DNA from: an uncultured Candidatus Saccharibacteria bacterium
GTDB lineage: Bacteria > Patescibacteriota > Minisyncoccia > Phycocordibacterales > UBA1006
Assembly: GCA_964425795.1 (NCBI GenBank)
Contig: CAYRNU010000001.1
Span: 1 to 29,533, forward strand
Reading direction: 5' to 3'
DNA length: 29,533 nt
Below are positions 1-28,719 of the stretch, in pieces. A program made the position numbers and the translations under genes. A model generated the notes under the pieces. The model searched no databases. It was not told where the DNA came from and was given only the letters and a program-made list of their open reading frames with translations. Numbering within the stretch: the stretch's first letter is position 1; each line of letters starts with the position of its first letter.

Positions 1-3000
1 AGCGGTGTCAGGAGTTCCAGGGTTGAAAGCAACAACTTGACGGTACATTGAATCTGGATCTTCTGGCTTCTTAACCCAGTCACCAATCGATAAACCTTTA
101 AATGTTCCCGCAATACCTGTAACAACGTTTGTGTTTGCTGTCCATGTAGCTGAGAAAGACTTATTGTTAAATGGTCTAGTCGTAATCAACTCATCAGTGG
201 CTGAATCATTGAAGATCATGATTGAATCATTATCTACAGCGATAACACGGAAACGACCGTTGTTATTAGACTTAAATGTAGTTCCACCGATGATTACATA
301 ATCATCTACGGCAACACCAGAATCTAAGAAACGTGGTGATTCACCATCTTGGCGAGAGATACGAACCATACCGTTAAAACCTAATTTTTGTAGGCGGTAA
401 CGAGTAGGTACTAATCCATCTTTAATAACAGATGCTCCAACTGAAGCTTCAGCGAAGTCAGCGCCAGCAGATGCAAAAGTAAATGAGTTAGCATTTAGCA
501 CTGTAATAGGTCCGTAAGCACTATCAACTAAATTATTAGAATCTTGTAAGTTAACAGTATCACCAGAGTTCATAAAGTGAGGAGCTGAAGCAACAACTGT
601 AACAACGTTAGACGTACGGCTGATAGCTGTAACATTTACACGTGTTGAGTGTGCTAAATTCCACTTGATGATTGGAGTAGGGCAGATTTGAACTGTATTA
701 CCAGAACCAACTGCAGTAGCAGACATAGCTTTACCGTATGGATTTACTACATCGAAGTAGTTAGATGCATCGTTTACAGCTATGATTGGAAGACCAGCAA
801 CTAAGCCATCTCCACCATTACGTACTTTATTTCCTTGAGCCCAAGATAATGTATTACCGAAAGCAAATACTTGATCACCAGCACGAACGTCACTTAAAGT
901 AACAGATCCACCAGAGTGTGTCCAACGCCATACGAAACCAGCAGGACGACCATAAGATCCAGAAACATCAGTGATAGCAAATGTAGTTGCAGCAATAATG
1001 TTTGTAACCTTAGGGTTATAGTTATATTCAATAATATTAGATGACGGGTTTGTAACAGTAATAGAGTCACTAGTAATTAAACGACTCAAGCGTTTAGCGC
1101 CAGCATCATTTTCAACCTTGATATAATCACCAACGTTAAATGTATCTGGGAAAGCTGGAACCTTCATTAATAAATAGTTACCAGAAACATCAGAGGCTAC
1201 TTCAGATTCACCGAAGATATAAGCTTGAGCTTTATTAGCGTTACCACCAATAACTTCAATTGCTCCTGCAGAACCAAGTTGTTTAGACGTGATCTGTACA
1301 TTACGGCGATCGTTAGAGATGCGAACATCAGAAACGATAGGTAATTGAGAAAGAGCCTTTTGAGTAAGGTGATGATGAATATTAGTTACAGAAACTGGGA
1401 TCAATTTGAATTGTTCACCAAGATCTGAGATGTCATCGTTTGGTGCAGTATCCATCGCATAAACAGATGGAGCAACTCCGTTAAGAGTAGACACGCCTTT
1501 TAATGTAAAGTTAGGATTAACGTTAGCAAACGCCTTAACCCAGTTAACTCCATCATATAAGTTAATATGATCGCGTGTAGCCAATGAAGTAGGATTGTGT
1601 CCATAACCTAAAGCAGTAGAGTTACCACCGTAAGTATAGAACTCCTGTCTTGTAGCTCTATCAATTGTAAGTGCTGGATTTCCAACAGGAGATATTGCAA
1701 TGATTTGACCAGCGTTAACTGTATCAGCAATCGTTTGAACGTCGTTTCCTACAAGAGGGAAGAATACTACGTTACCAGCATTAGTAATTAACTCTGCAGC
1801 TGACAATGAACCTTGTTGAGTAGTTGATACTGCAAAGCCAGAAGTATTAGCGGTTGCGTCAGGTACGTTACCATCTGCCACATTAGTGATAGTGATTACT
1901 GGACCAACATTAGAAGCATTAAAAAATAAATCTGGGTTAATAACCGCAACAGTAGCAGCAGCTACAGTAGTTGCATTATCTCCATAATTGACCCCAGGGA
2001 CACGAATAGAACGGTTTGCACCATGGAATGGTTCTTGCGTTCCGTCATCACCTACGTCATACCAGACAGCTACAGATCCATTCTCATCATTGATGATAAA
2101 GTATTTACCGTCAAGAGTGTTATCCGCAGTACCGTTTACTGAACGAGCAGTTGTAAATCCAGAAGTACCGTTAGAAGGAACTGGAAGAGATCCGTTAACT
2201 AAGTTAGTTAAAGTGATTTGGTTGCCAATTACTCCAACAGAGTAAGCATTATCAAGTGAAATAACTGAACCAGTCTTAGTAGCAACTACAGAAGCAGAAT
2301 CACCTGTCACTACAGTGGCAACCTTAATAGCACGGTTAGCGCCATGAGATGGAGGTGGATTACCTGCATTATTCAAGTCATACCAAACAGCAACTGTTCC
2401 TTGAGAATCGTTTACGATAAAGTATGTTTGATCTAACGAATCAGCAACATCAGCCACAGTATCGATAGTGTATTGAGTAGCAGTTCCGATTACATCAGCT
2501 ACCGCAGTAACTTGAGTAATCTCTGGAGCACCAGGAGATGTAGCACTTGCTGTTGGATTGAAAACACGTACTGTGAATCCAGACTTAGCTTCAACACGGA
2601 ATTGACCCATGTTAGCGTTTGAAACCCCAGAGCCATCAGAGATAGATAAAACATCTCCAACTTGTACGGGTGCCAAGTTACCAGCAGAGAAAGTGTAATC
2701 GTAATAATTTCCTGTAGATACAGATCCATTAGGGAAATTAGTAGAAGTATCAGGGTATGGACCTTGTACTGCAATAGTGTAACCAGATGCGATAGCAGCT
2801 GCACGAGCAGGACCAGAACCAAAGAAGTATGAATACATACTGTATGAAGGTGAGTTCAAGAATGTAGTCGTAGGAGCTTGATCAACAGATGTTGGATACT
2901 CGATAGAGAAACGTAATTTCTCACCGTTAGGTCCGTACTGTTGAGATCTAACGATCATCTTTCCGCCAGAACCAGCTACGCCACCAGTTGAATACCAATT

Positions 3001-6000
3001 GCGAGCTCTCATCCAAACAGCATAATCGCTGAATTCAGTATTGTTGATATCTTTACCCCAAACTGTTAAGTTATTGAAGTCGATACCTGGTTCATTATCT
3101 TGGTCAAATGCAGAGAACTCTGTTGTAGTTGGCAAGAATGTTCCGCCACCAGATCCAGAGTTTACGCGACCAGTACGAGCCATGCGAACGTCGATAGTTT
3201 TAATTGTAGCGTCTTTGTCCATTACGACAACGATGCTATCTTCTGAAGAAATGTTAACTGGACGAACTAATTCAACTTCGTCTCCAGTTACCCAGTCAAG
3301 TTCAGTACGAGCAACACCTTGTTGAGTTCCAACTTGGTCAGATGCAGGTTTAGCTTTGATTGTGCGGAATTGACCACGGTTTCCACCGCGTGTTCCAGAA
3401 ACATAATCATCAAAAGCTGATTGAGATAATTCAGTAGCTTGTAAAGTCTCACTGTAAGTTCCAGTAAATGGAGGAGCATCTGGAACAGCATTAGCTGTTA
3501 AAGAACCCTTAGCGTCAGTATAAGTGTGACGACCCAAGAATACGTTTGTTCCTACTGGAGCTGTACGTTTAAACAGACCCACTAAAGACTTATCAGAGAT
3601 GCGTGTAGCTACGTGAGGTGGGTTACCAAACTGAGCAGTTGCAGTTTCAGCAAAGATAACTGAAGCGTTAGCAATTGAAACCGGAACAGCGATACTTCCA
3701 CCCTTTTCAGTAGTAGAAGTAATCTTAATAGAATTAGATTTATAAATAGTAGCTAAAACACCAGCAACATCTTTATTTAAAGAGTCAACAACGCCTGTGA
3801 TCGGTTCAGCAGGAGGATTGTCAAGGTATGAACCGCGCCAGATTTGAGGGAAACCATCTGTCTCGAAAGCTTTAATATCTAAAGAATCAGAGATAGTGAT
3901 GCCAGCTTCAGGAACAACTCCAACATTATCAACGTCTACGTAAGTGTCTACGCCTTGTGATGTGTGTCCGCCTTTAGCTTTAATTTTGAATAATCCAGAG
4001 TTTGCAGCAGATACCCAACCAGCCGTTCTTTGAACGATGTAGATATAATCACCTGGTTTTAATGCAGCAAAAGCATCAGCAGTAGCAGACAAGATTCTCA
4101 TCGTGCTTGCACTTGGATTGCTGATTGTAATTGTAGATCCAATTAATAGAGGCACCGCAACTTGGTTACATACAGTAGAGTCAACTACTAGAACCATTTC
4201 AGCAGGGCGACCAGAAGCATCAGAAGCTAAATTATAAGTTCCTGTTGTAGTTGCAGCAGAGATATTGAATCCCTTAGCATCTTCAACACCAGCAGAGAAA
4301 TTATCACCTGGCAATACATCCGTAAGGATACGTAAGTTACCAGTTTGACGATTTAATTCAAATTGGGCTGTTTGACCAGCACTCTCTAGAGGTAGATTAG
4401 GGAACCATTTATTTAATAGAGTTCCACCACTTACAACGATAGAGCTATCAGCTCCTTCTTTGTTAGAGCGGATAATCATAGTTTGAGATGGAGTAGCTTC
4501 TGCAGTTAATCCAGCGAACTTGTCGTTGAATACTGCAACCCAGTCATCAATAGTTAATGAAGCAAATGAAGATGCCCCAACGAAGTCAGATAAAGCAAAA
4601 GCTCTATCTTGAGCTGGAGTACCATCAACAGCAATAATGATATTGCTCGTTGTGTTGATATTCCATTGAGCAAATGAAGCTGTTTTTAATTCAGCTGATT
4701 TACCTTTCTCGTGAAGACGTGTACTGTTTTGATATAGAGCAATATAGCTGAATTCATCAGTAGGGAACTTCAAGATAGTGTTTGCATATAAAGTTTCGTC
4801 ATCAGTATCTCTCAATGGAGCAACTTGGATGATCTCAGCGTCATGGGCAACTGGATATAAAAGAATATTAGCTGACTTATTTACGAAGCGAGCTTTGAAT
4901 AAAGTAGAGTTAGCATTTAAAGCAACAATAACTTCAGATAACGTAGCCGCAGAGATATTTAAGAACTGGCTAGTACTAAAGAAGATCGTTTCTTCCTCAC
5001 CGTCAACGATAACACGCAAGAATGAACCATCTTTCAGTGTGAATGGGCCTTCTTCTACGTTAATAGCTTGTGGACGTGGAACAGGATAGTTAGCAAGTTG
5101 TAAGAACTCTTCAGTTCCTTCAGCATTAGATAAAAGCTTATCTACTGACTGACCAGCGAATGAAGGCTGGAATCCAGATCCATCATCGATATAAAGAATA
5201 GAAGGGTCACCAACTTTAACTGGCTCAGTGATAACTGCAGAAGCAACTTGATTAGAGTCATCAGGGTCAGAGACTCCGATAACTGAAGCAATGATACTTG
5301 GAGCTGTACCGCGAGCAAGAGTGATTGAATATGATTTAAGTCTGTTTCTTAATTCAACATCTGTCTCGATATCGCGACCAGAAGAGAATGAAGAAGTATT
5401 TGTAACAGCAGCGCCAGTAAATGGAACTACGTCGAAAGCAGTAATAGTGTTAATTCCAGCATTACCTAAGCTACCAGCTACTAAAGCGATAACCTCAACA
5501 CCCTTAACAACGTCTTCACCAGAAGGAATAACAGCATCTCTTAAAGTGACGTATTGCACCTCAGGGTTCTGATTATTCGCAGGGATCTTAACTACCGTGC
5601 CGGCAGCAATCAATCGATCTGGTTCACCCTGGGAATCAATAACGATATCAGAAATTAAATGATCCTTCTGTAAAGCAGAAGCAAGCGTAATTTCAGAGTA
5701 TGTTGGGAAAACAGTGATAGAAGTATAGTTGATTGGACCTTCAAATGATTGAGTTCCACGACCAATATAAAGAGTTCCAGTAGCTGACCAACCTGTAGTG
5801 TTATTTACATACAGCTTAGTTTGTCCAGCAATAGGGGCAGGCTTAATAACGTAAAGACCAGTTGAGCGCTTAGTAATGTTTGAATTAAGGATGTTAACAA
5901 GACCAGAAGCTTTAATAGCTGCACGGCGTGTTAATCCAAAGTCACCAGCTTTAGCATCAAGATCGTTATTCTTGATAGCATCAATGTTTAGAAGTTCTAA

Positions 6001-6165
6001 AACATTAAGGATAGCAGTATTGTTCTCAAAGTCATTAGCAGCCGCAGCTTCTAACAATGTAAGGAGGACAGATCCTGCGTTAAGGTCATTAAGTGGAGTC
6101 TCCGCAATAATCTTACGGATCATGTCACCTAGAATTTGATTGAAACTCTTAATTTGTATAGCCAT
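1..6165 (-). CDS. Giant baseplate J-like (wedge) protein with long beta-rich extension; 3'-truncated by window edge (>2055 aa)
   Basis: ATG at 6165 (MAIQIKSFNQILGDMIRKIIAETPLNDLNAGSV...). No stop found in this frame: read continuously over 1-2100 and translated or spot-checked elsewhere. Baseplate-J motifs GSLGNAGINTIT and GRDIETDVELRNRLKSYSITLARGT at about 5300-5480. Missing from the ORF track, presumably because there is no stop in the window. Confidence 0.88.
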   Translation of the reverse strand, partial: MAIQIKSFNQILGDMIRKIIAETPLNDLNAGSVLLTLLEAAAANDFENNTAILNVLELLNIDAIKNNDLDAKAGDFGLTRRAAIKASGLVNILNSNITKRSTGLYVIKPAPIAGQTKLYVNNTTGWSATGTLYIGRGTQSFEGPINYTSITVFPTYSEITLASALQKDHLISDIVIDSQGEPDRLIAAGTVVKIPANNQNPEVQYVTLRDAVIPSGEDVVKGVEVIALVAGSLGNAGINTITAFDVVPFTGAAVTNTSSFSSGRDIETDVELRNRLKSYSITLARGTAPSIIASVIGVSDPDDSNQVASAVITEPVKVGDPSILYIDDGSGFQPSFAGQSVDKLLSNAEGTEEFLQLANYPVPRPQAINVEEGPFTLKDGSFLRVIVDGEEETIFFSTSQFLNISAATLSEVIVALNANSTLFKARFVNKSANILLYPVAHDAEIIQVAPLRDTDDETLYANTILKFPTDEFSYIALYQNSTRLHEKGKSAELKTASFAQWNINTTSNIIIAVDGTPAQDRAFALSDFVGASSFASLTIDDWVAVFNDKFAGLTAEATPSQTMIIRSNKEGADSSIVVSGGTLLNKWFPNLPLESAGQTAQFELNRQTGNLRILTDVLPGDNFSAGVEDAKGFNISAATTTGTYNLASDASGRPAEMVLVVDSTVCNQVAVPLLIGSTITISNPSASTMRILSATADAFAALKPGDYIYIVQRTAGWVSAANSGLFKIKAKGGHTSQGVDTYVDVDNVGVVPEAGITISDSLDIKAFETDGFPQIWRGSYLDNPPAEPITGVVDSLNKDVAGVLATIYKSNSIKITSTTEKGGSIAVPVSIANASVIFAETATAQFGNPPHVATRISDKSLVGLFKRTAPVGTNVFLGRHTYTDAKGSLTANAVPDAPPFTGTYSETLQATELSQSAFDDYVSGTRGGNRGQFRTIKAKPASDQVGTQQGVARTELDWVTGDEVELVRPVNISSEDSIVVVMDKDATIKTIDVRMARTGRVNSGSGGGTFLPTTTEFSAFDQDNEPGIDFNNLTVWGKDINNTEFSDYAVWMRARNWYSTGGVAGSGGKMIVRSQQYGPNGEKLRFSIEYPTSVDQAPTTTFLNSPSYSMYSYFFGSGPARAAAIASGYTIAVQGPYPDTSTNFPNGSVSTGNYYDYTFSAGNLAPVQVGDVLSISDGSGVSNANMGQFRVEAKSGFTVRVFNPTASATSPGAPEITQVTAVADVIGTATQYTIDTVADVADSLDQTYFIVNDSQGTVAVWYDLNNAGNPPPSHGANRAIKVATVVTGDSASVVATKTGSVISLDNAYSVGVIGNQITLTNLVNGSLPVPSNGTSGFTTARSVNGTADNTLDGKYFIINDENGSVAVWYDVGDDGTQEPFHGANRSIRVPGVNYGDNATTVAAATVAVINPDLFFNASNVGPVITITNVADGNVPDATANTSGFAVSTTQQGSLSAAELITNAGNVVFFPLVGNDVQTIADTVNAGQIIAISPVGNPALTIDRATRQEFYTYGGNSTALGYGHNPTSLATRDHINLYDGVNWVKAFANVNPNFTLKGVSTLNGVAPSVYAMDTAPNDDISDLGEQFKLIPVSVTNIHHHLTQKALSQLPIVSDVRISNDRRNVQITSKQLGSAGAIEVIGGNANKAQAYIFGESEVASDVSGNYLLMKVPAFPDTFNVGDYIKVENDAGAKRLSRLITSDSITVTNPSSNIIEYNYNPKVTNIIAATTFAITDVSGSYGRPAGFVWRWTHSGGSVTLSDVRAGDQVFAFGNTLSWAQGNKVRNGGDGLVAGLPIIAVNDASNYFDVVNPYGKAMSATAVGSGNTVQICPTPIIKWNLAHSTRVNVTAISRTSNVVTVVASAPHFMNSGDTVNLQDSNNLVDSAYGPITVLNANSFTFASAGADFAEASVGASVIKDGLVPTRYRLQKLGFNGMVRISRQDGESPRFLDSGVAVDDYVIIGGTTFKSNNNGRFRVIAVDNDSIMIFNDSATDELITTRPFNNKSFSATWTANTNVVTGIAGTFKGLSIGDWVKKPEDPDSMYRQVVAFNPGTPDTA
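1840..2480 (-). repeat. Two tandem ~107-aa protein repeats inside the giant baseplate protein
   Basis: TYFIVNDSQGTVAVWYDLNNAGNPPPSHGANRAIKV vs KYFIINDENGSVAVWYDVGDDGTQEPFHGANRSIRV; the YFI codons lie 321 nt apart (2416-2424 and 2095-2103). Boundaries approximate. Confidence 0.85.
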
Positions 6166-7806: not shown

Positions 7807-8753
7807 TATCTACCTAACACACTAATTCCACCAACAGCAGAACCGATAATCGATTTAGCTTGGCCAGAAAGTGATTTAATATCACCAAGAACTGAAGAGC
7901 CATCGACTCCATTAATTCCTAGTTCTGAATAACGTTGTTGTAAGTCATCAGCAATCTTATTCTTTATACCTGTTAAGTTATAACCACGCAACTGAATTGA
8001 GTAGTTATATAACATAGGATTAGTAGCGTCTTTACGCATAGTAAAGCTACGAACCACTACGTCGTACTGATTATTATCTTTGTAATTGAAGAAAGTCAAT
8101 GGGTGTTCTTTGCGATCTGTTTGAGAACTAACACCAGCAGCATCTTTCTTGTATTGTAAAAGGAAGCGGTATAGGTTGTGGAAAGCCGCATAGCCGCTCT
8201 CGTCAACTGCAACACCAGTTTGAGCTTTAGGTCCACCATCTAATAAGTCAGCAGCCTTGTTTTTAATTTGATTGATGGCGCCAAGAGTCTTAGCGAAGAA
8301 TCCGCCAGCGCTGATGCTTTGAGCTACAGCGACACCGCTACGGCCAGGCTTATAAAGACTTCTATATAAAGTAGAAGAATCGTCGCCAGCTCCAGGATTT
8401 ACGAACTTAGGGGCAAACCCAGTTGTTCCTTCAATTGTAATGTCCCAATAGCGAACATCAGAGTGTTCTTCAACTGTTCCATATAGTGTTGTAACAACGT
8501 TAGTTGCAAAGTTCGTATTTACTTGAATATTGCTAGGATTGATTGGTAGGAACATAGTAAATACGCCACCGTCTCTTGTAGTTGTTTTAAAACCATAAGG
8601 CTTGGCTGTATACCAGTTTTGCTTCTCTACTTTGTAGAGACCTTCCATCTGGTTAAGTAGATCAGAAACGTCACCGGCGTCACCTTTAGGGGCTGCACCG
8701 ACTGGTTTAGGTCTATTAAAAATTTCTGTTAAATTGGAAATACTAAAACTCAT
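7806..8753 (-). CDS. Putative tail tube initiator / baseplate tube-like protein
   Basis: LPINPSNIQV...EEHSDVRYWDITIEGTTG and YDVVVRSFTMRKDATNPMLYNYSIQL resemble tube-initiator folds (XkdP/gpU/CIS-tube type); position between spike and wedge. Confidence 0.65.
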   Translation of the reverse strand: MSFSISNLTEIFNRPKPVGAAPKGDAGDVSDLLNQMEGLYKVEKQNWYTAKPYGFKTTTRDGGVFTMFLPINPSNIQVNTNFATNVVTTLYGTVEEHSDVRYWDITIEGTTGFAPKFVNPGAGDDSSTLYRSLYKPGRSGVAVAQSISAGGFFAKTLGAINQIKNKAADLLDGGPKAQTGVAVDESGYAAFHNLYRFLLQYKKDAAGVSSQTDRKEHPLTFFNYKDNNQYDVVVRSFTMRKDATNPMLYNYSIQLRGYNLTGIKNKIADDLQQRYSELGINGVDGSSVLGDIKSLSGQAKSIIGSAVGGISVLGR

Positions 8754-15323: not shown

Positions 15324-15920
15324 TTAGAAACCGAAGTTTCTTAATTTATTAGCTATATTACTTAGAGTACTGCCATCAAGTCGACTTGGGGCATTGTTAT
15401 CTTTAGAGTCGTTAATACCTTCAGCTCTAGCTGGTTTTCTCTCATCTTGAAACCCAATGGCTTTCCATTGCAGAGTTACATTAGATAGTTGATCAACTCT
15501 GATATCTTCAGCTCGTGAAGTAATCATAGCCTTACCAGTGTAAAACAATAACTGATCGTTAACGTCTCTCACTTCGATTGTGATGTACTGTTGAAATAAG
15601 AAATTAAGTGCGTCTGGTTGCCATAACTCAGTTCCAGCTGATTGACCTGGAATATGGAGTGCTGACATAGTGCCGTCCACTGTGATTCTTTGTGGGGCAA
15701 GTTCTGCAGGAAAATAGTCGTCGATAGTGTTAATCTCAGTTACTGTCGTGTTGATTCTCCAAGAGATACCAAAACAGAAACCTACAACCTTACCGTTGAT
15801 TTTAAGAATAGTACGAGCACCAGACGAGTATTTCGCTGATGGCTTAGTAGAGAAAACACCAGAAACATTCTGTGCTAAGTTATCTCCAATATTGTTCGGT
15901 CTATTATTAAAACCTGACAT
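15324..15920 (-). CDS. Tail tube protein paralog 3
   Basis: SGARTILKINGKVVGFCFGISWRINT...AELAPQRITVDGTMS aligns with the two upstream tube paralogs. Confidence 0.75.
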   Translation of the reverse strand: MSGFNNRPNNIGDNLAQNVSGVFSTKPSAKYSSGARTILKINGKVVGFCFGISWRINTTVTEINTIDDYFPAELAPQRITVDGTMSALHIPGQSAGTELWQPDALNFLFQQYITIEVRDVNDQLLFYTGKAMITSRAEDIRVDQLSNVTLQWKAIGFQDERKPARAEGINDSKDNNAPSRLDGSTLSNIANKLRNFGF

Positions 15921-15928
15921 CTATATCC

Positions 15929-16522
15929 TTAAAATTGCTGGCCAACGCCAGAGAAGTCTGCTACGAAACTATCTTCGTCTACGTATAAAGCAACGAAGTT
16001 AAAGCGCTGTGTAGCTACGCCACGCTTAGATAATGAAAAATCTGATTGAGTAATTCTTACGTTACGAATGTTTGCAACACCGATATCGTTTCCATTTCCA
16101 GTCTTTTGATAGACTTGAATATCGAAAGTTACACCATTTGAAAGTTTACTAGGATCAAGAGCTTCGTGGGCACGGCCGTCATTTCCAACTCCGTTACGAG
16201 CTAAGAAATCACTTCCACTATTTCCCCAAGCTGTTCCCCAGTTACCGATACCGTTACCAGCATCGTTACCGACTACACCTTGTGGAAGTTTACCTTTAAC
16301 AGCATCTTCAACACCTTTAGCATAACGTACAACAGTGAAGCTCCCTGAAACCGTGTATCCGAGTGGTTCCACTGAAGATCCTTCATACATACCTAATACT
16401 TTAGGAGTTTGAGTAAGAACATTAACTGAATAAGATAAATCAGTGCAGAAGGCCATGGTCTTATCATTGACCTTCACTTTCGCGTTTGCACCCGTAATGA
16501 AGAAAGGTTTAATACCTGACAT
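15929..16522 (-). CDS. Tail tube protein paralog 2
   Basis: FITGANAKVKVNDKTMAFCTDLSYSV...VEPLGYTVSGSFTVVRY; C-terminal NVRITQSDFSLSKRGVATQRFNFVALYVD. Confidence 0.8.
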   Translation of the reverse strand: MSGIKPFFITGANAKVKVNDKTMAFCTDLSYSVNVLTQTPKVLGMYEGSSVEPLGYTVSGSFTVVRYAKGVEDAVKGKLPQGVVGNDAGNGIGNWGTAWGNSGSDFLARNGVGNDGRAHEALDPSKLSNGVTFDIQVYQKTGNGNDIGVANIRNVRITQSDFSLSKRGVATQRFNFVALYVDEDSFVADFSGVGQQF

Positions 16523-16542
16523 CTACACTGATCTCCAGTTAA

Positions 16543-17106
16543 TTACGATAAGTCTGTATCGCCAGAGTATGATGAATCGAAAGATTCGTCATCAGCTAAG
16601 ATACCAACAAAAGAAAGACGGTCAACTAAGATACCACGTTTATTCAACGAAGCACTCTTACGTGTGAAACGGCAATCTTTGATTGTGATGAACTCAACAG
16701 AGTCTGTCACAGTAGCAGTTCCACCAGCAGCAGTTGCGCCAGTTTGTTCTTTTTGGAAAACAGATAAATCCCATGTTTGAGATAACAAAATGTTTCCTGG
16801 GTTGATTTCGTTAGCGCCGTTTCCACCAGTAGTGTAATCGACTTTACCTAAACCGTTACCACCTGTGTTCGTTCCAGGCATATTGTTTGTCTTAGCAATT
16901 CCAGTGTAACGAACAACTGATAATTCACCAGCTACTGAGTAGTTTACTGGTTCGTTAGTTACTGCTTCATATCGACCCATTGTTTCGATAGGAATAGTAT
17001 CTACGGCTACTTGATATGATACGTCAGCTGCATAAGCAAACGTCTTACCGCCTACTTTAATCTTAGCATTCGCACCTGTGATAAATGAGGGCTTTTTACC
17101 TGCCAT
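16543..17106 (-). CDS. Tail tube protein paralog 1 (probable start MAGKKPS at 17106)
   Basis: First gene after the sheath; FITGANAKIKVGGKTFAYAADVSY...NEPVNYSVAGELSVVRY; RBS AAGGA before ATG 17106. Confidence 0.82.
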   Translation of the reverse strand: MAGKKPSFITGANAKIKVGGKTFAYAADVSYQVAVDTIPIETMGRYEAVTNEPVNYSVAGELSVVRYTGIAKTNNMPGTNTGGNGLGKVDYTTGGNGANEINPGNILLSQTWDLSVFQKEQTGATAAGGTATVTDSVEFITIKDCRFTRKSASLNKRGILVDRLSFVGILADDESFDSSYSGDTDLS

Positions 17107-17153
17107 TTGAGTTCCTTTTGGTCTTGTGGTTGACCTTACCATCCATTTTTTTA

Positions 17154-17259: not shown

Positions 17260-19479
17260 TTAAGCTGTTTGAGTTGCGCGTTGCAGAGTGATATCTGCTA
17301 ACACGAAATCGATACCTTCAACTAATTTCACAACTACTGCGATATTAACAGTGTTACCGTTAATTTGAACAACTAATTGTTTGAAACCGTTTTTAGCATC
17401 AGAAGTAGAAACAGTAATACCTTGAGCTAAGTAAGTTGCAAGGATAGCCTCACAAGTACTCTTAATCTCAGCAGCAGAAACTGTGTTCTTCAATCCAACA
17501 TAGATATTCTCTAATTGGTTACGGAAGTCGTAAGCCAATACGTCTGAAGCGTACAACACGTTACCACGGTTGTTAACCCAGTTTCCATCCTTATTGTAAG
17601 TTGTATTATCAACTACAAGGCGGAATCCACCAGTTTGAGGAGCTTCCCAGAACGTTAAAGCGTTCGCGATAGCATCGTCGTACTGTGTATCTGGATCAAA
17701 ATCAACAACGATATCTTGCTCAGCAGTGCTCATTGGTTGAGCCGTTTGACGGATACCTGACATGTTGAAGTATTTGAATGTCATTGGGTTACCAATTGGT
17801 GAACCACCGCGTGCACCAGCAAGTAATGCTGCGCCAGCCCATGGTTGGAACCACTTGATGTTACCTTCAGAATCTGTTTGACGAATGTCTTGGATTACCA
17901 TTTGGATGCGAGCAGCAGCCATTGTAGCAATCTTAACTTTAGCGTCAGAATAAGATCCTTTGAAAGATAAGTAACCTTGTCTTTCAGATTTTTTCTTAGT
18001 AGTAGACATCAAGCTTAAGTGAGTTTTCACGGCTTGGTGGATACCATCGATAGTATATGTAGAAGCAGCATCAGTCAATTGGTCAGCAATATCATCAGCG
18101 GCATCGCGTGAGAATAAAGGAACAACAGAGTTAACACGGAACTTCTCGAACTTACTTAATGCAGTAACGATATCAGCAGAAGCAGTAGCTCCTTTTGAAC
18201 CGCCAGATAAGTAAATAGCATTTGGCACGCCTTGTTGATCTGGAAGACCAACTTTCTTAACGCTTGATTGGCTCACTAGAGGAATTAATTCAACTTGTGA
18301 AGACAATGCGAAGAAGTCAGCAACTTTTTTAGCATCTTGTTTGATGCGAGCAGGCATAGCACCTGAAGCAGCATGAAATGCACCAGTTGCAGCAACTTGG
18401 TCTAATACTGAAAGAGACAATTGTCCTAACAATACTGAACCAGCTTGTGCGATCCAACCTGGAAGTGTGTTTACGTAATCAACTAAAGCTTGAACATTTG
18501 GGAAGTCAGCTTTATTTAATACATAAGAAGTAGGTGTTGCGCCAGTTTGTGAAAGAGTAACTGAAGAAGCAGACACCGCTACAGTTGCAGCAGTTGCGCC
18601 ACCAGTTGAATCACGACCCATCATCAACACGATTTCGCCACCAACTGTTTGACTCTCTTCAAGAGTAGTAACAGGGTTACGAACAGTTAATGTAGCCATT
18701 GGTTCAGAAGCAGCAGCAGTCCAACCAGCAACGTGGCCGATTGATACAAGTGCTGTACCACCAGTGATTTCCATTGAACGACCAGAACCATTTTGATTCA
18801 AGTTAGATCCAGCAGCCATTGCAATTTCAATTGATGTTCCATCGGCTGATACTTCCCAGCTAGAACCCATTGCAGTTTGAATAGCAGCAGCTAAAGCAGC
18901 AGCGTTCGCGTACGAAGCAGCAGCGATAGTTGAAGTAACAGAAGCACCACCGTTTTGACGAGCGATGATTGTGTCGTTAGATGCAGAAGTAATTACTACT
19001 GGGTAAGTTGGAGCTGATCCAGTTACCGCAGCAGGAGTTTCTGCCGTTAATACGTTTTTAAAAGTAATTTGATTTCCTGACGTTCCCCATTGACGAGCAC
19101 GAAGACGACCGAAATCAGTTGCACCAGCTTCGATTGAAGCAAGTTCAGCACGAATAGATGCGTTTGTTTTGTAGATGTAAATCGCTTGCGCTCCACCTGG
19201 GATTGCACCGTCTGCTCCAGGAGCAAACAAGAAGTTACATGCGTCTACTAAATTACCGCGTCCATATTTGTCACGGATTTGAGCCATTTGATCTGGACCA
19301 AATACGTTATTAGCGATGTTTGTTTCTGCAGAGCCAGGAGCTCCTGCATCCGCTTCTCCAAATACTGCAACGATACCAGTTGGAGAAAGAGGAAATCCTC
19401 CGCCAAGGTCGATTGTAGTCTTAGAGTAAGCACCTGGTTTGAAAATGGTTGCACCATTAAAGCTTACATTAATTGCCAT
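17260..19479 (-). CDS. Contractile tail sheath protein
   Basis: 739 aa; N-terminal FNGATIFKPGAYS...GIVAVFGEADAGAPG; C-terminal sheath domain LYASDVLAYDFRNQLE...VVVKLVEGIDFVLADITL; RBS AGGAG. Confidence 0.92.
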   Translation of the reverse strand: MAINVSFNGATIFKPGAYSKTTIDLGGGFPLSPTGIVAVFGEADAGAPGSAETNIANNVFGPDQMAQIRDKYGRGNLVDACNFLFAPGADGAIPGGAQAIYIYKTNASIRAELASIEAGATDFGRLRARQWGTSGNQITFKNVLTAETPAAVTGSAPTYPVVITSASNDTIIARQNGGASVTSTIAAASYANAAALAAAIQTAMGSSWEVSADGTSIEIAMAAGSNLNQNGSGRSMEITGGTALVSIGHVAGWTAAASEPMATLTVRNPVTTLEESQTVGGEIVLMMGRDSTGGATAATVAVSASSVTLSQTGATPTSYVLNKADFPNVQALVDYVNTLPGWIAQAGSVLLGQLSLSVLDQVAATGAFHAASGAMPARIKQDAKKVADFFALSSQVELIPLVSQSSVKKVGLPDQQGVPNAIYLSGGSKGATASADIVTALSKFEKFRVNSVVPLFSRDAADDIADQLTDAASTYTIDGIHQAVKTHLSLMSTTKKKSERQGYLSFKGSYSDAKVKIATMAAARIQMVIQDIRQTDSEGNIKWFQPWAGAALLAGARGGSPIGNPMTFKYFNMSGIRQTAQPMSTAEQDIVVDFDPDTQYDDAIANALTFWEAPQTGGFRLVVDNTTYNKDGNWVNNRGNVLYASDVLAYDFRNQLENIYVGLKNTVSAAEIKSTCEAILATYLAQGITVSTSDAKNGFKQLVVQINGNTVNIAVVVKLVEGIDFVLADITLQRATQTA

Positions 19480-24084: not shown

Positions 24085-24138
24085 ATTATACCTGATTAGC
24101 GATTGAAATGGGTCTAGGCTCAATTATCCTGTTATAAT
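24085..24138. promoter_or_regulatory. Divergent promoter pair (GGTATAAT minus, 24085-24092; TGTTATAAT plus, 24130-24138)
   Basis: Back-to-back -10 elements at the strand switch. Confidence 0.55.
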
Positions 24139-24172
24139 GATTGTAGACTTAATCTGAAACAAATGGGATGTA

Positions 24173-24430
24173 ATGGGTATTTTGAATAAAATCATCGAAG
24201 AAGACGGATCCTGCACTCTTTGGGCTAGCCCATCTATTTGTGCTCAATGTCCATTAAGTAAATTAAAACAGAAACCTGATGGTACGTATCTGAGTTGTGT
24301 TGAAGCACTAGGTGTTGACAATATGACAGAGGAAGAGGCTGATGCTCGATATAAAGAGGTCGCAAGTCGCATACTGTTAGATGAGGCTATCGACGATATC
24401 CTTGGAGAGTCAGATGGCTCTCAGCAATAA
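24173..24430 (+). CDS. Small Cys-rich protein (paralog A)
   Basis: ILNKIIEEDGSC...ICAQCPL...SC; related to the next ORF. Confidence 0.7.
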   Translation: MGILNKIIEEDGSCTLWASPSICAQCPLSKLKQKPDGTYLSCVEALGVDNMTEEEADARYKEVASRILLDEAIDDILGESDGSQQ

Positions 24431-24656
24431 TGATGCTAATATTCTAGAACAAATAGTTCAATTAGAGGGAAAGTGCATGGATTCCCAGAGGTGTAAATTA
24501 TGTCCGTTCCGTGTAATGTGTCTACCAGAATTCATAAATCCAAATCCGCCAAGTCCAGAACAGCGAATGAAGATGTCGCTCGACGTACTTGCTCATCATG
24601 CTCTTGTGGACGATCTCCCCTTGGAAGCGACCGAATACAAATGGGACAAAAAGTAA
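24414..24656 (+). CDS. Small Cys-rich protein (paralog B)
   Basis: SD GGAG then ATG 24414; ILEQIVQLEGKCMDSQRCKLCPFRVMC. Confidence 0.7.
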   Translation: MALSNNDANILEQIVQLEGKCMDSQRCKLCPFRVMCLPEFINPNPPSPEQRMKMSLDVLAHHALVDDLPLEATEYKWDKK

Positions 24657-24757
24657 GCGACGTCTTATTCTTAAAAGAAAAGCAAGATCGCGCCAAGTAT
24701 AATCTTCTTATGGTATTAGTAAAACTAAAACTAAGAAGCTTTTATGACGAACGATAA
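24641..24757 (+). CDS. Micro-protein, helix-motif family (KYNLLMVLVKLKL)
   Basis: 38 aa from ATG 24641; fills the gap between 24656 and 24744 with overlaps. Confidence 0.5.
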   Translation: MGQKVSDVLFLKEKQDRAKYNLLMVLVKLKLRSFYDER

Positions 24758-24959
24758 AGATGAAATCCAAAGAATCTTGGCTAAACTAGCTGAGGTACCA
24801 GTAGAAGAATTAGGTCTTATTGAGGGTCGCTATTGCGGACCATCTAATAGATTTTTATGCGAAAATAGATTTCACTGTTCTCCAAAACAACTTAAAAAAG
24901 TTTTAGATCAGTACATTACTAATAGAGCATTTGAAGAAATCATTCTAAATACCAAGTAA
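24744..24959 (+). CDS. Small Cys-containing protein (possible paralog C)
   Basis: IQRILAKLAE...C...LC...HC...AFEEII echoes paralogs A and B. Confidence 0.6.
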   Translation: MTNDKDEIQRILAKLAEVPVEELGLIEGRYCGPSNRFLCENRFHCSPKQLKKVLDQYITNRAFEEIILNTK

Positions 24960-24961
24960 TC

Positions 24962-24970
24962 TGTTATAAT
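24962..24970 (+). promoter_or_regulatory. Extended -10 TGTTATAAT
   Basis: Immediately after stop 24959; a GGAGG SD follows at about 24998-25002. Confidence 0.5.
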
Positions 24971-25007
24971 AGAGATACCAACCTTGATCCTAACATAGGA
25001 GGCGAAC

Positions 25008-25259
25008 ATGACTAAACTCAGTCAACTTACACAGTTCGCTTCTCTGTGCTCAAATAATATTCACAAAGGAAGTACTTATGGAAAAGCGTCAACCACGCCA
25101 GGTCCAAATTCAATTCAATTCAGCACAAGAGGCTATCAATCTCTATATGCAAATCGAATTAAAGCACTTTCTGGCCAGATTACTATATTCCCACTATACT
25201 GGCAGAGTATAATAGTAGGTAATGAGCCACAAGACTTGGGAACCACACGAAATCACTAA
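25008..25259 (+). CDS. Hypothetical ORF (uncertain; overlaps two motif-family ORFs)
   Basis: Strong GGAGG RBS, but it fully overlaps 25078-25212 in another frame. Confidence 0.3.
   Translation: MTKLSQLTQFASLCSNNIHKGSTYGKASTTPGPNSIQFSTRGYQSLYANRIKALSGQITIFPLYWQSIIVGNEPQDLGTTRNH
25078..25212 (+). CDS. Micro-protein, helix-motif family (ELKHFLARLLYSHY)
   Basis: MEKRQPRQVQIQFNSAQEAINLYMQIELKHFLARLLYSHYTGRV, 44 aa; RBS AAGGAAG. Confidence 0.6.
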   Translation: MEKRQPRQVQIQFNSAQEAINLYMQIELKHFLARLLYSHYTGRV

Positions 25260-25401
25260 GACAGATAGTAAGATGAAATTCTTCTATTTCCTGCGTGATT
25301 TAGGTATCAAGTCAGCTCAAGAGCCTGCTCAAATTACTTGGAAACGTCACATAGAAATATTAACTCATCTCTATAACGGAGCTTGGCATGAGGTTTCATA
25401 G
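25222..25401 (+). CDS. Micro-protein, helix-motif family (KFFYFLRDLGIKSA)
   Basis: 59 aa from ATG 25222 (or 42 aa from 25273); TATAAT at 25208-25213. Confidence 0.7.
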   Translation: MSHKTWEPHEITKTDSKMKFFYFLRDLGIKSAQEPAQITWKRHIEILTHLYNGAWHEVS

Positions 25402-25636
25402 ACTCACTGCCGACCAAATTAGTTCTGTACATAGACTCTATAATTTTCTAAGAAAGATGAAAGTTATTGGGATAGTTAATACAGTGACTGAGCAAGTAAG
25501 GTATACAGAGAGTGGTAAGCCGCTGCGCTACAATCTTAAATTTGTTTCTTATGATGGTTCAATGAAGGGTAAGCTTACTCCTGAGGAAAAGCTATCTGTT
25601 TATTTTAAATCACTTAGTCTTGTATTCGACGGTTAA
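25388..25636 (+). CDS. Micro-protein, helix-motif family (RLYNFLRKMKVIG)
   Basis: 82 aa, overlaps the previous ORF; possible weak hub-like segment after the motif. Confidence 0.7.
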   Translation: MRFHRLTADQISSVHRLYNFLRKMKVIGIVNTVTEQVRYTESGKPLRYNLKFVSYDGSMKGKLTPEEKLSVYFKSLSLVFDG

Positions 25637-25777
25637 GCGACAGCCTTCCATCCAACGCGCACCAAGATGTACGCGATCAAATCCAATACCTAATTTCATC
25701 AGTAGATAAAATAGAGGATACTTAGCGAACGGCTCACCGTTCTCGTCATCGAAGTCATATTGCCAAGTGATGCCCAT
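25610..25777 (-). CDS. Micro-protein, helix-motif family (PLFYLLMKLGIG)
   Basis: MGITWQYDFDDENGEPFAKYPLFYLLMKLGIGFDRVHLGARWMEGCRLTVEYKTK, 55 aa; TAATG-coupled to the upstream ORF. Confidence 0.65.
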   Translation of the reverse strand: MGITWQYDFDDENGEPFAKYPLFYLLMKLGIGFDRVHLGARWMEGCRLTVEYKTK

Positions 25778-25950
25778 TAGGCAGACTCCGTTATCCAGTG
25801 CGGTTTAACGTAAATTTCTTTTCCTGTCTTAGGAAGAGTGTACTTAATAGAACCCATGATACCTTCTGTTGCGCTAGCTTTAATAAGCTTCATCAACATC
25901 ATTTGCATTTTAGATCTTGGATCCATTTTTCTAGTGTAATATCTACTCAT
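25777..25950 (-). CDS. Micro-protein, helix-motif family (KMQMMLMKLIK)
   Basis: MSRYYTRKMDPRSKMQMMLMKLIKASATEG..., 57 aa; ATGA-coupled to the upstream ORF. Confidence 0.6.
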   Translation of the reverse strand: MSRYYTRKMDPRSKMQMMLMKLIKASATEGIMGSIKYTLPKTGKEIYVKPHWITESA

Positions 25951-26135
25951 ATTCTACTATCCGCCACCATTACGTGTATTCGTCCGTCATTGCCGAACCA
26001 GTAGATTGTACCGTCTTTATAAAATCCACCTTCGATACCATTGCTGATCGTCTTATATTTCAATAGCTTCATGGCAAGAAACATTACGTTGCGAACAGGG
26101 AATCTAGGATAGATAGTCCAGTCTGGTCGATTCAC
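25947..26135 (-). CDS. Micro-protein, helix-motif family (RNVMFLAMKLLK)
   Basis: 62 aa; ATGA overlaps on both sides. Confidence 0.6.
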   Translation of the reverse strand: MNRPDWTIYPRFPVRNVMFLAMKLLKYKTISNGIEGGFYKDGTIYWFGNDGRIHVMVADSRI

Positions 26136-26365
26136 GGATAATTAGTAAGCGTTCTGAAGACGCTCTCCCACGGGAATTTAACAAATCGCTTATCTAGTCT
26201 ACATAAAACATATAAGAGTTTTTGGCGATGCAAGTCGCCTTCGATCATGTGAAGGTATGCTTTAAAAACAGAACCTTTTTCTAAGTCTTGGATAGGCGTA
26301 GATGAAACCATCCCCGCTATCATCGCGTCAAGAATTTCTTTGTACGTCTTTGGTGAAGAGCTCAC
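26132..26365 (-). CDS. Micro-protein: baseplate-J N-terminal mimic + helix motif
   Basis: GTG start 26365 after GGAAGG. KTYKEILDAMIAGMVSSTPIQDLEKGSV matches KSFNQILGDMIRKIIAETPLNDLNAGSV at 12/28, ungapped; then QKLLYVLCRLD. Confidence 0.75.
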   Translation of the reverse strand: MSSSPKTYKEILDAMIAGMVSSTPIQDLEKGSVFKAYLHMIEGDLHRQKLLYVLCRLDKRFVKFPWESVFRTLTNYP

Positions 26366-26409
26366 GAATATACCTTCCAACTGTAACGAACGCGACGTAC
26401 CAAGCTAAA

Positions 26410-26643
26410 CTAAGTATTAGACCCATCAGAGCCATCGCTATCAACAGTCTCGATAGGGATTGCTGTAATACCAGCATCAAAGCTTGCGTCTTTTGCATAA
26501 GCGACGTCTTGTCCATTTATCTTTAACCTCAAAAGTCTTCCTCTTAAGATGGAAGGCTTGTTATTTATTATAGCGCTTTTAATCCCCAATTTCTTGAGGA
26601 AGAATAAGAACTTTCTGTATTCCCAAGTGTCCCATTGAATCAT
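26410..26643 (-). CDS. Micro-protein: helix motif + tail-tube N-terminal mimic
   Basis: RKFLFFLKKLGIKSA, then KPSILRGRLLRLKINGQDVAYAKDASFDAGITAIPIET, 16/38 identical and ungapped to tube paralog 1. Confidence 0.8.
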   Translation of the reverse strand: MIQWDTWEYRKFLFFLKKLGIKSAIINNKPSILRGRLLRLKINGQDVAYAKDASFDAGITAIPIETVDSDGSDGSNT

Positions 26644-26822
26644 AATTTTGGTCCTGGCATTCTTCGCTTAAGTGTATATCCTCGTGGAAAACCTGCAGAT
26701 TTAATATCTAACTTTCTCAATAAAAACTTTAAATCCCTAATAGATTGTTGTTCTACAGTGAGTCCACCATAGTTACCTGGTACTCGCAGCGTAACCCCAC
26801 CAAATATTCTAGTTATAGCCAT
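26640..26822 (-). CDS. Micro-protein: tail-sheath N-terminal mimic + helix motif
   Basis: SD GGAG then ATG 26822. MAITRIFGGVTLRVPGNY vs sheath MAINVSFNGATIFKPGAY, 9/18 identical; then RDLKFLLRKLDIKSA. Confidence 0.78.
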   Translation of the reverse strand: MAITRIFGGVTLRVPGNYGGLTVEQQSIRDLKFLLRKLDIKSAGFPRGYTLKRRMPGPKL

Positions 26823-26892
26823 ACGTTCTCCGTCCCGCATTGAGAATTCGGCGGGGGCCCCTCAGATGCAATATACTGAGTTAGAGCATAGT

Positions 26893-27129
26893 TCATTTCT
26901 TCAACTTACTTGGATCAAATGTTGCTTTGCTTAGTGTCTTCTCTAAAGATTCAAATGCAGCGGCACCCATGAAAACTTGATCTGGTTTTCCGCCACTGTA
27001 CATTCCAACTTCAAGTGCTTCCATCAAATCAAGAATCATATCCTCACTAGAGAATTCTGCACTCTTAATTCCGAGCTTCTTCACGAAGTGTTTAAGTTTT
27101 CTGTATTGCTTTTTACTCTCAATGTTCAT
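26893..27129 (-). CDS. Micro-protein: helix motif + possible major-capsid-like segment
   Basis: RKLKHFVKKLGIKSA, then ...MYSGGKPDQVFMGAAAFESLEKTL; TATAAT 6 nt before the ATG. Confidence 0.7.
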   Translation of the reverse strand: MNIESKKQYRKLKHFVKKLGIKSAEFSSEDMILDLMEALEVGMYSGGKPDQVFMGAAAFESLEKTLSKATFDPSKLKK

Positions 27130-27141
27130 GAGAATATTATA

Positions 27142-27438
27142 CTAATTGCCGACGCCAGGGTTACGAGCTGTATACTGAGATTCCATGCGGCGAGCTGGCT
27201 TAACAACCTGCTTGATGTCTACGCGACCACCCTTTGGTACATCTCCGCCACCGAAGTCTTTCAGTGAACCTTTCTGTCCGGTATCCTTTGGCAAGTCACC
27301 GTTAAGATTGTGTTGAGTGCGAGCTGCGAAAGTAGCACTACCTGGTTTATAGTCAGACTTCGGTTGTTTCAAACCGTCACCAGTAGCTTTATGAAGCTCC
27401 CATTGTCCGCACTTATTAAACGTTAGATATTCGCTCAT
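27142..27438 (-). CDS. Small basic Gly-rich hypothetical protein (N-terminal LTFNKCGQWELHKA)
   Basis: 98 aa; TATAAT at 27445-27450, 6 nt before the ATG; lacks the family helix motif. Confidence 0.7.
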   Translation of the reverse strand: MSEYLTFNKCGQWELHKATGDGLKQPKSDYKPGSATFAARTQHNLNGDLPKDTGQKGSLKDFGGGDVPKGGRVDIKQVVKPARRMESQYTARNPGVGN

Positions 27439-27566
27439 GTAATGATTATATCATAGTCTGCATGGTACGCGGTCAAGAACGTCAAGTAGGCGTAAGGTCC
27501 AATCACTTTTAATTGAAGTAATAATAAAGCAAGGCTCTTCCTTATCTCGCGTTCCTCTTGTGTCAT
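27435..27566 (-). CDS. Micro-protein, helix-motif family (KSLALLLLQLKVIG)
   Basis: MTQEEREIRKSLALLLLQLKVIGPYAYLTFLTAYHADYDIIIT, 43 aa; ATGA overlap with 27438. Confidence 0.55.
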   Translation of the reverse strand: MTQEEREIRKSLALLLLQLKVIGPYAYLTFLTAYHADYDIIIT

Positions 27567-27577
27567 ACGTTCATTCG

Positions 27578-27688
27578 CTACACGAACTCACGTGCCTCAT
27601 CTTGGTGAACATACAAAGCTTGTTTGATTCCGAGCTTCTCTAAGAAGCTCGTTAATCTGAACGTGTTTGCCATACCCCACGGCTTCAT
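27578..27688 (-). CDS. Micro-protein, helix-motif family (RLTSFLEKLGIKQA)
   Basis: MKPWGMANTFRLTSFLEKLGIKQALYVHQDEAREFV, 36 aa; SD GGAG. Confidence 0.7.
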   Translation of the reverse strand: MKPWGMANTFRLTSFLEKLGIKQALYVHQDEAREFV

Positions 27689-27698
27689 CGTGTCTCCG

Positions 27699-27917
27699 TC
27701 ATGTTAATTCCAATTGCCAAGTTCGCCCGCTCGGCGAACTCGTCATGCTCCGGTACTCCGTTAGACGATTGTAATAAATTACATCGAGTTTCGTCAACAC
27801 TCCGATTAAGCTCTTGATGGATGCAGCCTCTTCCGGCTTATACCACCTTGACGTGTACCTCGATGCTACTACGTCCAGTCTTATATTAGATGTGGTGACT
27901 CTATGTGTGAGACTCAT
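27699..27917 (-). CDS. Micro-protein, helix-motif family (KSLIGVLTKLDVI), possible LysM-like fragment
   Basis: 72 aa; ATGA-coupled; N-terminal HRVTTSNIRLDVVASRY. Confidence 0.6.
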   Translation of the reverse strand: MSLTHRVTTSNIRLDVVASRYTSRWYKPEEAASIKSLIGVLTKLDVIYYNRLTEYRSMTSSPSGRTWQLELT

Positions 27918-28027
27918 GCAGACCTCTGTTTGACGCCGGTGGGCACGCCCAGCTTTTCCAGGAAATAGAACAACTTGTAGGTTTTATGTTTGCCCTCCAT
28001 GAGGGTCCAGAGTAGTTGACCGTTCAT
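27914..28027 (-). CDS. Micro-protein, helix-motif family (KLFYFLEKLGV)
   Basis: MNGQLLWTLMEGKHKTYKLFYFLEKLGVPTGVKQRSA, 37 aa; ATGA overlaps on both sides. Confidence 0.7.
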   Translation of the reverse strand: MNGQLLWTLMEGKHKTYKLFYFLEKLGVPTGVKQRSA

Positions 28028-28182
28028 GGTGTTGGTCTCTTTGGGGAGGAGATGTTGATGTAGAGCATGGCAGTAGACCTTTTGATTAATCCCATTTTGT
28101 ATAGCTGAAGGATGAGACGGCCTGTTGGGTTTATCTCGATTATGTATTGAGAGCCTGGGACTGAGTGGTAGCCTGGTTTCAT
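28024..28182 (-). CDS. Micro-protein, helix-motif family (RLILQLYKMGLIK)
   Basis: 52 aa from ATG 28182 after GAGGA; ATGA overlaps on both sides. Confidence 0.6.
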   Translation of the reverse strand: MKPGYHSVPGSQYIIEINPTGRLILQLYKMGLIKRSTAMLYINISSPKRPTP

Positions 28183-28334
28183 TTGTCCTCTAGTGGTAGG
28201 GTGTTCCACCCAAGTGTAGGGGTTCCAGTGTAGGAAATGAGTTGGATTACCTTAAGTTTATTTAGGAAATTATGTAGCTTGAATAGGGGAAGGTTGTCTT
28301 TTTTATATTCGAAGTGTCCGTGAGAGATTTCCAT
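28179..28334 (-). CDS. Micro-protein, helix-motif family (KLHNFLNKLKVI)
   Basis: MEISHGHFEYKKDNLPLFKLHNFLNKLKVIQLISY..., 51 aa; GGTATAAT 7 nt before the ATG. Confidence 0.65.
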   Translation of the reverse strand: MEISHGHFEYKKDNLPLFKLHNFLNKLKVIQLISYTGTPTLGWNTLPLEDK

Positions 28335-28388
28335 ATTTTATATTATACCAATAGGGGTACCGGGTTAAGGTTTGCCTATTAGGTTTAG

Positions 28389-28620
28389 AGGGTGGCGGGG
28401 CCTTTATTTAGGTTGGTAATTTGGATATAGGAGTCGGCAAAAGAATGCGATGAGAAATGTATGTTGAATGGTTAAGTGTGGGCGTGAGTCGCGATATGTG
28501 TGGCGGATGGTGGACCATTTTTTAATGCAGGTATCTTCGATTGATTGGTCCAGTGGAATATATATAAATGGTCTGAAAGGAGGAGTGCGCATGAAGAGTA
28601 TTGTACCAAGGGTGGCGGGG
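28389..28620. repeat. 12-bp GC-rich direct repeat AGGGTGGCGGGG (28389-28400, 28609-28620)
   Basis: Exact copies 220 nt apart in an otherwise AT-rich region. Confidence 0.7.
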
Positions 28621-28625
28621 GCCAC
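28404..28625 (-). CDS. Micro-protein, probable helix-motif family (FLIAFFCRLLYPNY); start uncertain
   Basis: C-terminus matches ORF 25078 (HFLARLLYSHY); alternative ATG at 28592. Confidence 0.4.
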   Translation of the reverse strand: MAPATLGTILFMRTPPFRPFIYIPLDQSIEDTCIKKWSTIRHTYRDSRPHLTIQHTFLIAFFCRLLYPNYQPK

Positions 28626-28719
28626 TTTATAGAAAAAGCTTATGTACAGAAAGAGTTGGCCGCGTGAGGCTCCCTGAAACTAGGGGTTCCCTTTTATGCT
28701 AAGGCTAGCGGGCGCCTAT

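Follow-up and report, generated by a model that had tools for sequence, protein, structure and literature searches.

The 77-residue protein encoded at positions 26132-26365 on the minus strand is, judged from its sequence, a free-standing homologue of the N-terminus of the baseplate-J protein of the same phage. The window, by which we mean the whole stretch of 29,533 nucleotides that was analysed, is a 29.5-kb contig of an uncultured phage detected in bioreactor and wastewater metagenomes. Homology to J, together with the reality of the micro-protein gene, can be held with high confidence, and the first ~56 residues were shown to derive, through an old and partial duplication, from the 5' end of the J gene of this phage. 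As for its role, a microProtein-type modulator of wedge assembly would be the single most likely, with a probability of roughly 0.35 for the mechanism as a whole. The gene, its parts and its closest neighbours are:

26132..26365, minus strand: micro-protein gene, 77 codons plus TGA stop, GTG start (from translation)
26373..26378, minus strand: ribosome-binding site GGAAGG, 7 nt before the GTG (read from the sequence)
26198..26365, minus strand: J-like segment of the micro-protein, residues 1-56 (hhalign columns 1-57, profile positions 1-56, AF2 helices)
26174..26236, minus strand: family tag helix of the micro-protein, residues 44-64 (DLHRQKLLYVLCRLDKRFVKF; tag HMM matches)
25947..26135, minus strand: downstream gene of 62 aa, whose GTG start overlaps the micro-protein TGA (GTGA), with orthologues in L003 and L019
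26328..26516, minus strand: overlapping membrane micro-ORF, which terminates 38 nt inside the micro-protein gene (ORF list)

Translation of the minus strand over these coordinates reproduced the peptide that the initial annotation had read from a GTG start (26365-26363), and this start is preferred over an upstream TTG because of the ribosome-binding site and because relatives have ATG at the aligned codon. The J-like segment is laid out as a helix (residues 8-22), a loop bearing the TP..D...GS motif and the beginning of a long helix; the tag helix overlaps the end of this segment, and the C-terminus is composed of the tag and a 13-residue tail. The membrane micro-ORF lies in a different frame, contains one transmembrane helix and overlaps the 3' end of the neighbouring tube-copy gene as well. 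Its counterparts are located at L003 9859-10029, L019 2708-2815 and L020 829-933, and across the four phages it overlaps the initial 17-38 nt of the J-copy gene; its occurrence in four phages makes a genuine overlapping gene probable.

The parent protein belongs to a minus-strand contractile-tail module, which also contains hub and spike genes:

1..6165, minus strand: giant baseplate-J-like gene, truncated where the window ends (Pfam Baseplate_J over residues 179-279, PDB homologues)
5992..6165, minus strand: parent segment, J residues 1-58, N-terminal helices (A3 profile match, AF2 model)
6205-7806, minus strand: gp25-like baseplate gene (533 aa)
7806-8753, minus strand: tube-initiator-like gene
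11551-14430, minus strand: tape measure
15324-17142, minus strand: three tube-like genes
17260-19479, minus strand: sheath gene

The likeness between the two proteins is short and well supported. The J gene starts at 6165 with the residues that had been quoted for it, and ungapped BLASTP of K6-V33 in the micro-protein against K6-V33 in J returned the 12/28 identities claimed earlier (19/28 positive; 30 bits, E 2e-6 for the pair). The claim that the match runs in register from the start codon also stood, residues 1-33 of the one being aligned on residues 1-33 of the other. When every stop-to-stop ORF in the six frames of the window was searched (20,278 aa), J was matched with 31.2 bits (E 6.7e-5) and the second-ranking match had 18 bits. 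The shuffling proposed as a check of significance gave a clear answer: the highest score among 3000 composition-preserving shuffles of the micro-protein was 28.9 bits, below the 31.2 bits of the real match, and the best scores averaged 19.0. Profiles strengthened the match: a profile of 16 micro-family sequences (alignment A3) found window 5992-6165 in its own genome with 47.6 bits and E 7.3e-13, corresponding to J residues 1-58 on profile positions 1-56, and hhalign placed columns 1-57 of the family on columns 1-59 of 20 J N-termini with 97.8% probability and E 1.2e-12. In the opposite direction, an HMM built from J proteins alone had the micro-protein ORF as its sole match among 569 small ORFs (E 2.5e-5). 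Chance similarity, or an ORF that is not coding, might be argued from the shortness of the pairwise match (28-33 residues), and is next to negligible in view of the shuffles, the profile and hhalign E values, and the purifying selection and conserved synteny described below.

Structure prediction and distant homologues are consistent with this relationship. AF2 models have a first helix at residues 8-22 in both the micro-protein and J, followed by a short turn and a long helix, and the model of J 1-420 has helices at 8-22, 30-42 and 46-63. In Myxococcus phage Mx1 the sole match of the micro profile was the J N-terminus (E 0.01), and a search of that phage with the micro-family profile found no free-standing copy. 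The profile also matched the solved baseplate protein 9euf_C weakly, at residues 7-41.

At the nucleotide level, micro-protein and J are identical at 56 of 120 positions (47%) over 40 codons, and the same codon is used at 5 of the 14 residues they have in common. Most identical residues being encoded by different codons, selection acts on the protein; a recent DNA duplication or gene conversion was ruled out by the 47% nucleotide identity together with the different codons. The PKSY..IL start of the micro family is nearer to J of Mx1 (PRSYQSIL) than to the clade's own J (IKSFNQIL), and its loop motif matches the clade's own J. From these sequences, the duplication may be older than the J N-terminal sequence seen today.

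When 1.84 billion representative proteins were searched exhaustively with a profile (E <= 1e-3), 15 matches were obtained, of which 14 were small proteins of 59-97 aa (14 small-protein clusters) and none was a full-length J; the protein P0131 (288 aa) was excluded from the family as a low-complexity repeat. Several members are closer to J than the window copy is, for example SDLNAGSVMKTLLD against NDLNAGSVLLTLLE of J. The orthologues P0003 and P0004 are 75-79% identical to the window micro-protein. Orthologues in related ~173-kb Mx1-like phage contigs occupy the same locus, beside conserved genes for a 272-aa protein, a NUDIX protein, a 214-aa and a 247-aa protein; this synteny holds in the 173-kb contig L003 and in four more distant relatives (L019, L020, a JGI contig and L009). 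An orthologue was found in all relatives examined, and each matches the window J N-terminus in register, within residues 1-33, with E 4e-5 to 4e-4. Between the window and L003, 24 codons are identical, 36 differ synonymously and 17 nonsynonymously, these counts being used because saturation of synonymous sites makes dN/dS not computable. The micro-protein gene is real, conserved and under purifying selection.

No family match was obtained in Pfam (E<=10), PHROG, PADLOC or NCBIfam, the PADLOC version being 2.0, which the Tab and Tai models may post-date. The IMG/VR search returned no relatives of the phage and megablast of phage GenBank no match. Foldseek against PDB (no match), VIA-align (best Z 4.7, generic helical proteins) and an ESM Atlas feature search (scores below 0.8) are uninformative for a helical protein of 77 residues. 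Scans for sigma-70 promoters and terminators were at or below shuffle expectation, and in RNA-labelled wastewater runs the gene was covered solely by relatives' contigs of read size, which is no proof of transcription.

What the copied piece does in J can be approached through solved wedges. In the diffocin, according to its authors, one TRI-1 and two TRI-2 chains contribute their N-terminal regions to the core bundle and trifurcation unit, and the gp25-like sheath initiator binds the core bundle (PMC10996793). The initial annotation had regarded J-type N-terminal helices as the core bundle of the wedge, which agrees with TRI-2, a solved sequence homologue of J (PMC10996793). Mapped by position, J residues 1 to about 60 would be core-bundle helices. 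The micro-protein has the corresponding helix-loop-helix with the D...GS loop, and D27, G31 and S32 are conserved in both families.

The residues that survive in the micro family are a subset of those conserved in J. Of 35 positions conserved at 90% or more within J residues 1-62, the family keeps 10 (S7, L12, M15, T23, D27, G31, S32, L38, L56 and L59) and retains the residue class at 9 more, while 16 are lost (I3, I5, N9, G13, R17, L35, E39, A40, A42, E47, N48, N49, A51, E57, L58 and D62); L35 and L58 of J are replaced by Lys. The loop residues D27, G31 and S32 are invariant in members that are only 29-48% identical to each other. The internal core of the hairpin and its hallmark loop have thus been preserved, whereas a group of residues that probably face outwards has turned polar. 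This pattern fits a soluble one-sided cap, or a scaffold which no longer uses the contacts of J, and a full structural subunit is harder to reconcile with the loss of one set of J-invariant surface residues than a one-sided cap.

A modulator of wedge assembly, akin to the poison or decoy that the initial annotation had suggested for a free copy of these helices, might work as follows. The retained hairpin, with its hydrophobic heptad positions and D27/G31/S32 loop, would dock on the usual partner of the J N-terminus, for which another J chain, a gpI/TRI-1-like protein and the gp25-like sheath initiator are candidates. Through its tag, the micro-protein would be tethered to a partner that the sheath- and tube-derived neighbours also have, and the outcome would be that wedge and tail assembly is delayed or blocked. 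We infer this mechanism from the homology, the real gene, the core-bundle role, the kept core and loop, the matching helix boundaries and the collinear neighbours. The predicted complex of J(1-420) with the micro-protein had a score of 0.00, with a partner pLDDT of about 40, values that count neither for nor against binding. Some evidence speaks against a faithful mimic, namely the loss of 16 of the 35 J-invariant positions and an evolution far faster than that of the supposed partners, and a one-sided capping inhibitor could be compatible with both. Since J N-termini hardly vary within the clade, a poison blind to self versus rival would harm its own phage as well.

The difference in rate is large. 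Between the window and L003, the micro-protein changes at 17 of 77 residues and J residues 1-60 at 1 of 60, with 20 synonymous changes in the latter, a comparison that rests on one other phage with both genes recovered from the same contig (L003, L021, L022). Relative to L019, identity is 76-86% for structural proteins and 41% for the micro-protein. Such fast evolution, like that of the non-structural neighbours, could also point to an exapted relic, where the J-derived hairpin serves as a stable helical scaffold for an accessory or host-takeover function of the tag family that is unrelated to the baseplate. This explanation, a tentative one, ranks close behind the modulator and before an anti-defence decoy and an assembly helper, in that order. 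It would account for a protein that has given up nearly half of the J-invariant positions and retained its intra-hairpin hydrophobic core, for a gene situated in a tiny-gene cluster outside the structural operon, and for a tag common to about a dozen ORFs without virion likeness. It accounts less well for the invariance of the J hallmark loop in such divergent members, and random relics would be unlikely to lie next to two genes that likewise bear N-terminal oligomerisation pieces from tail proteins, collinearly arranged.

Rapid divergence beside an almost invariant J would likewise fit an arms race with a variable host factor. By analogy with known systems, the J-N-terminus-like surface could occupy a host immune sensor of tail or baseplate proteins without triggering it, and the location of the gene in an accessory-gene cluster is in keeping with such a decoy. 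This is improbable: we know of no sensor of baseplate-J N-termini, PADLOC and anti-defence families gave no match, and positive selection is without support, dS being saturated. Sensors of phage structural proteins do exist (PMC11087589, PMC11364771).

Still less probable is an assembly helper, either a chaperone-like cap for free J/TRI-1 N-termini or a small subunit of the unusual giant-J baseplate. Homology to a bundle-forming hairpin and the presence of orthologues in every relative would suit this role; it is at odds with the absence of the micro-protein from Mx1, which has a homologous J, with a gene placed outside the structural operon, and with divergence much faster than that of structural proteins.

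The neighbourhood of the gene bears on a modulator of assembly as well. Right of 24.1 kb there are about 40 tiny ORFs in two convergent blocks, and the micro-protein gene cluster lies outside the structural operon. Within window 24100-28700, on both strands, about a dozen ORFs of 36-98 codons carry the amphipathic motif FL.KLGIKSA / FL.KLD.RF; the cluster, 35-52% identical to L019, evolves much faster than the adjacent structural genes, for which the value is 76-86%. The micro-protein belongs to this tagged family by its amphipathic L..FL.KL[DG][IS][KR][SF] helix. A tag HMM built solely from members of the J-mimic family and searched among the 569 ORFs had its best non-self matches at 26410-26643 (E 0.0022), 27578-27688 (E 0.007) and 27914-28027 (E 0.039); the A3 profile matched 27043-27138 at E 0.07, and the family member P0135 bears the neighbour-type KLGIRSAE. 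An origin of the tag from J helix 3 (AILNVLELLNIDAIKNN vs FLKKLGIKSAIINN) was unsupported, as an HMM of J 44-80 reached at best E 0.5-7 against other tags. Two of the tagged neighbours begin or continue with tail-protein likeness:

26410..26643, minus strand: tagged micro-ORF with a tail-tube N-terminal segment (BLASTP to the tube protein 16543-17142: 38.9 bits, E 3.7e-8)
26640..26840, minus strand: tagged micro-ORF whose start marginally resembles the sheath N-terminus (23.1 bits and E 0.012 in BLASTP against sheath residues 1-24)

When 42 small ORFs were screened against 17 structural proteins, the pair of micro-protein and J ranked second, and the reversed-sequence control reached 21.9 bits at most, a value to be set beside the 23.1 bits of the sheath-like match. 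The three best small-ORF/structural-protein matches of the window come from genes lying side by side, and their succession (sheath, tube, J) is that of the tail genes. Each copied piece is an N-terminal oligomerisation element. The neighbours resemble the J copy in the amphipathic tag, adjacency, small size, fast evolution and tail-protein N-terminal piece. They differ in that the J copy has the virion-derived piece first and the tag second, whereas the tube copy has the reversed order, and the J copy is kept in L020 and L009, where the tube copy is absent. The three tube-like genes (15324-15920, 15929-16522 and 16543-17142, minus strand) are consecutive paralogues which all match phrog_3776; two of them, the first and the third, are matched by the tube-copy micro-ORF.

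It is conceivable, if rather doubtful, that these genes form one cassette, in which adjacent micro-genes present the N-termini of sheath, tube and J, each with the common tag, together with the overlapping membrane protein, and act as caps or decoys. If true, phage-encoded microProteins made from virion proteins would cap tail building blocks or decoy host sensors of tail proteins. To our knowledge, no phage system of virion-protein microProteins has been described, and our literature search found no report of phage micro-genes copying the N-termini of the phage's own tail proteins.

Several known systems can be compared with the J copy. It resembles baseplate J / T4 gp6 / TssF / TRI-2 (PF04865) in the N-terminal helix-loop-helix, the TP..D...GS motif and the register from residue 1. 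It differs from these wedge proteins in having only 77 residues, no wing, trifurcation or dimerisation domain, and a foreign tag helix. No Pfam match to the Baseplate_J core (PF04865) was found at E<=10, and the C-terminal wedge-linking dimerisation domains are absent by length. As it has neither the Pfam core nor the dimerisation domains, it falls functionally outside the baseplate-J family and is a fragment homologue rather than a functional member.

MicroProteins of plants and animals such as LITTLE ZIPPER, Id and miP1a/b (PMC5381583, PMC9638782) are alike in consisting of a single interaction module with a larger relative in the same genome. With 77 aa and homology to J 1-57, the micro-protein lies within their size (under 20 kDa) and module definition, and the proposed mode, sequestration into non-productive complexes, would be theirs by analogy. 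Those microProteins regulate eukaryotic transcription factors, whereas the parent here is a phage virion wedge protein. Tab (PMC10884400) and Tai (PMC11364771) are alike in the proposed outcome, being small proteins encoded by mobile elements that disturb tail assembly. Their carriers are prophages or satellites and their targets other phages, and no sequence relationship was found; in contrast, the micro-protein gene belongs to a lytic-type ~173-kb phage and copies a protein of that very phage. DSAD1, a small phage protein which occupies the tail-tube-sensing host protein DSR2 (PMC11087589), is alike in the concept of occupying a host tail-protein sensor; it has no homology to the micro-protein, and this likeness is purely conceptual.

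If the hairpin engages wedge partners, it would be the first phage microProtein made from the assembly interface of a virion protein itself. It would then provide a compact genetic means to time or block contractile-tail assembly, and possibly a template for inhibitors against phage tails, pyocins or T6SS-like wedges. If it is instead an exapted scaffold, it would indicate that phage accessory genes can be born from 5' fragments of structural genes and persist clade-wide.

The parent J has features of its own. Its full-length form in relatives (P0005) has 2364 aa, and among cultured relatives the J-like protein of Myxococcus phage Mx1 comes nearest (38% identity). Its solved sequence homologues are the diffocin TRI-2 CD1371 (8v3w_E), the gp65 triplex protein (9g8s_C), ORF62 (9euf_C) and Mu gp47 (9ki1_H). 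The J-like protein is ~6x the usual size; relative to solved J proteins, ~85 residues are inserted after the N-terminal helices and ahead of the Pfam core, and the C-terminus is extended by ~1900 residues, a stretch which in some relatives contains an ice-binding-like domain (PF11999). In relatives, a protein of 836 aa (L012 17768-20278) is encoded two genes downstream of J, beyond a GIY-YIG endonuclease gene; its N-terminus looks like that of P2 gpI or Mu gp48 (TRI-1 class) by sequence, and profiles gave no support for a gpI/gp48-like assignment.

Relatives carry homing-endonuclease-like genes around J (L012 9487-10017, 17095-17775 and 20303-20791; L003 5925-6239). Among them, an EndoVII/HNH-like gene overlaps the J start and the GIY-YIG gene directly follows J; the window lacks the EndoVII/HNH-like gene, and there the gap between the gp25-like gene and J is just 40 nt. 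The phage contig was binned with a 587-kb genome of 81 contigs rated 91.5% complete, and this binning may be an artefact, since a ~173-kb Mx1-like myophage is an unlikely resident of a 587-kb genome.
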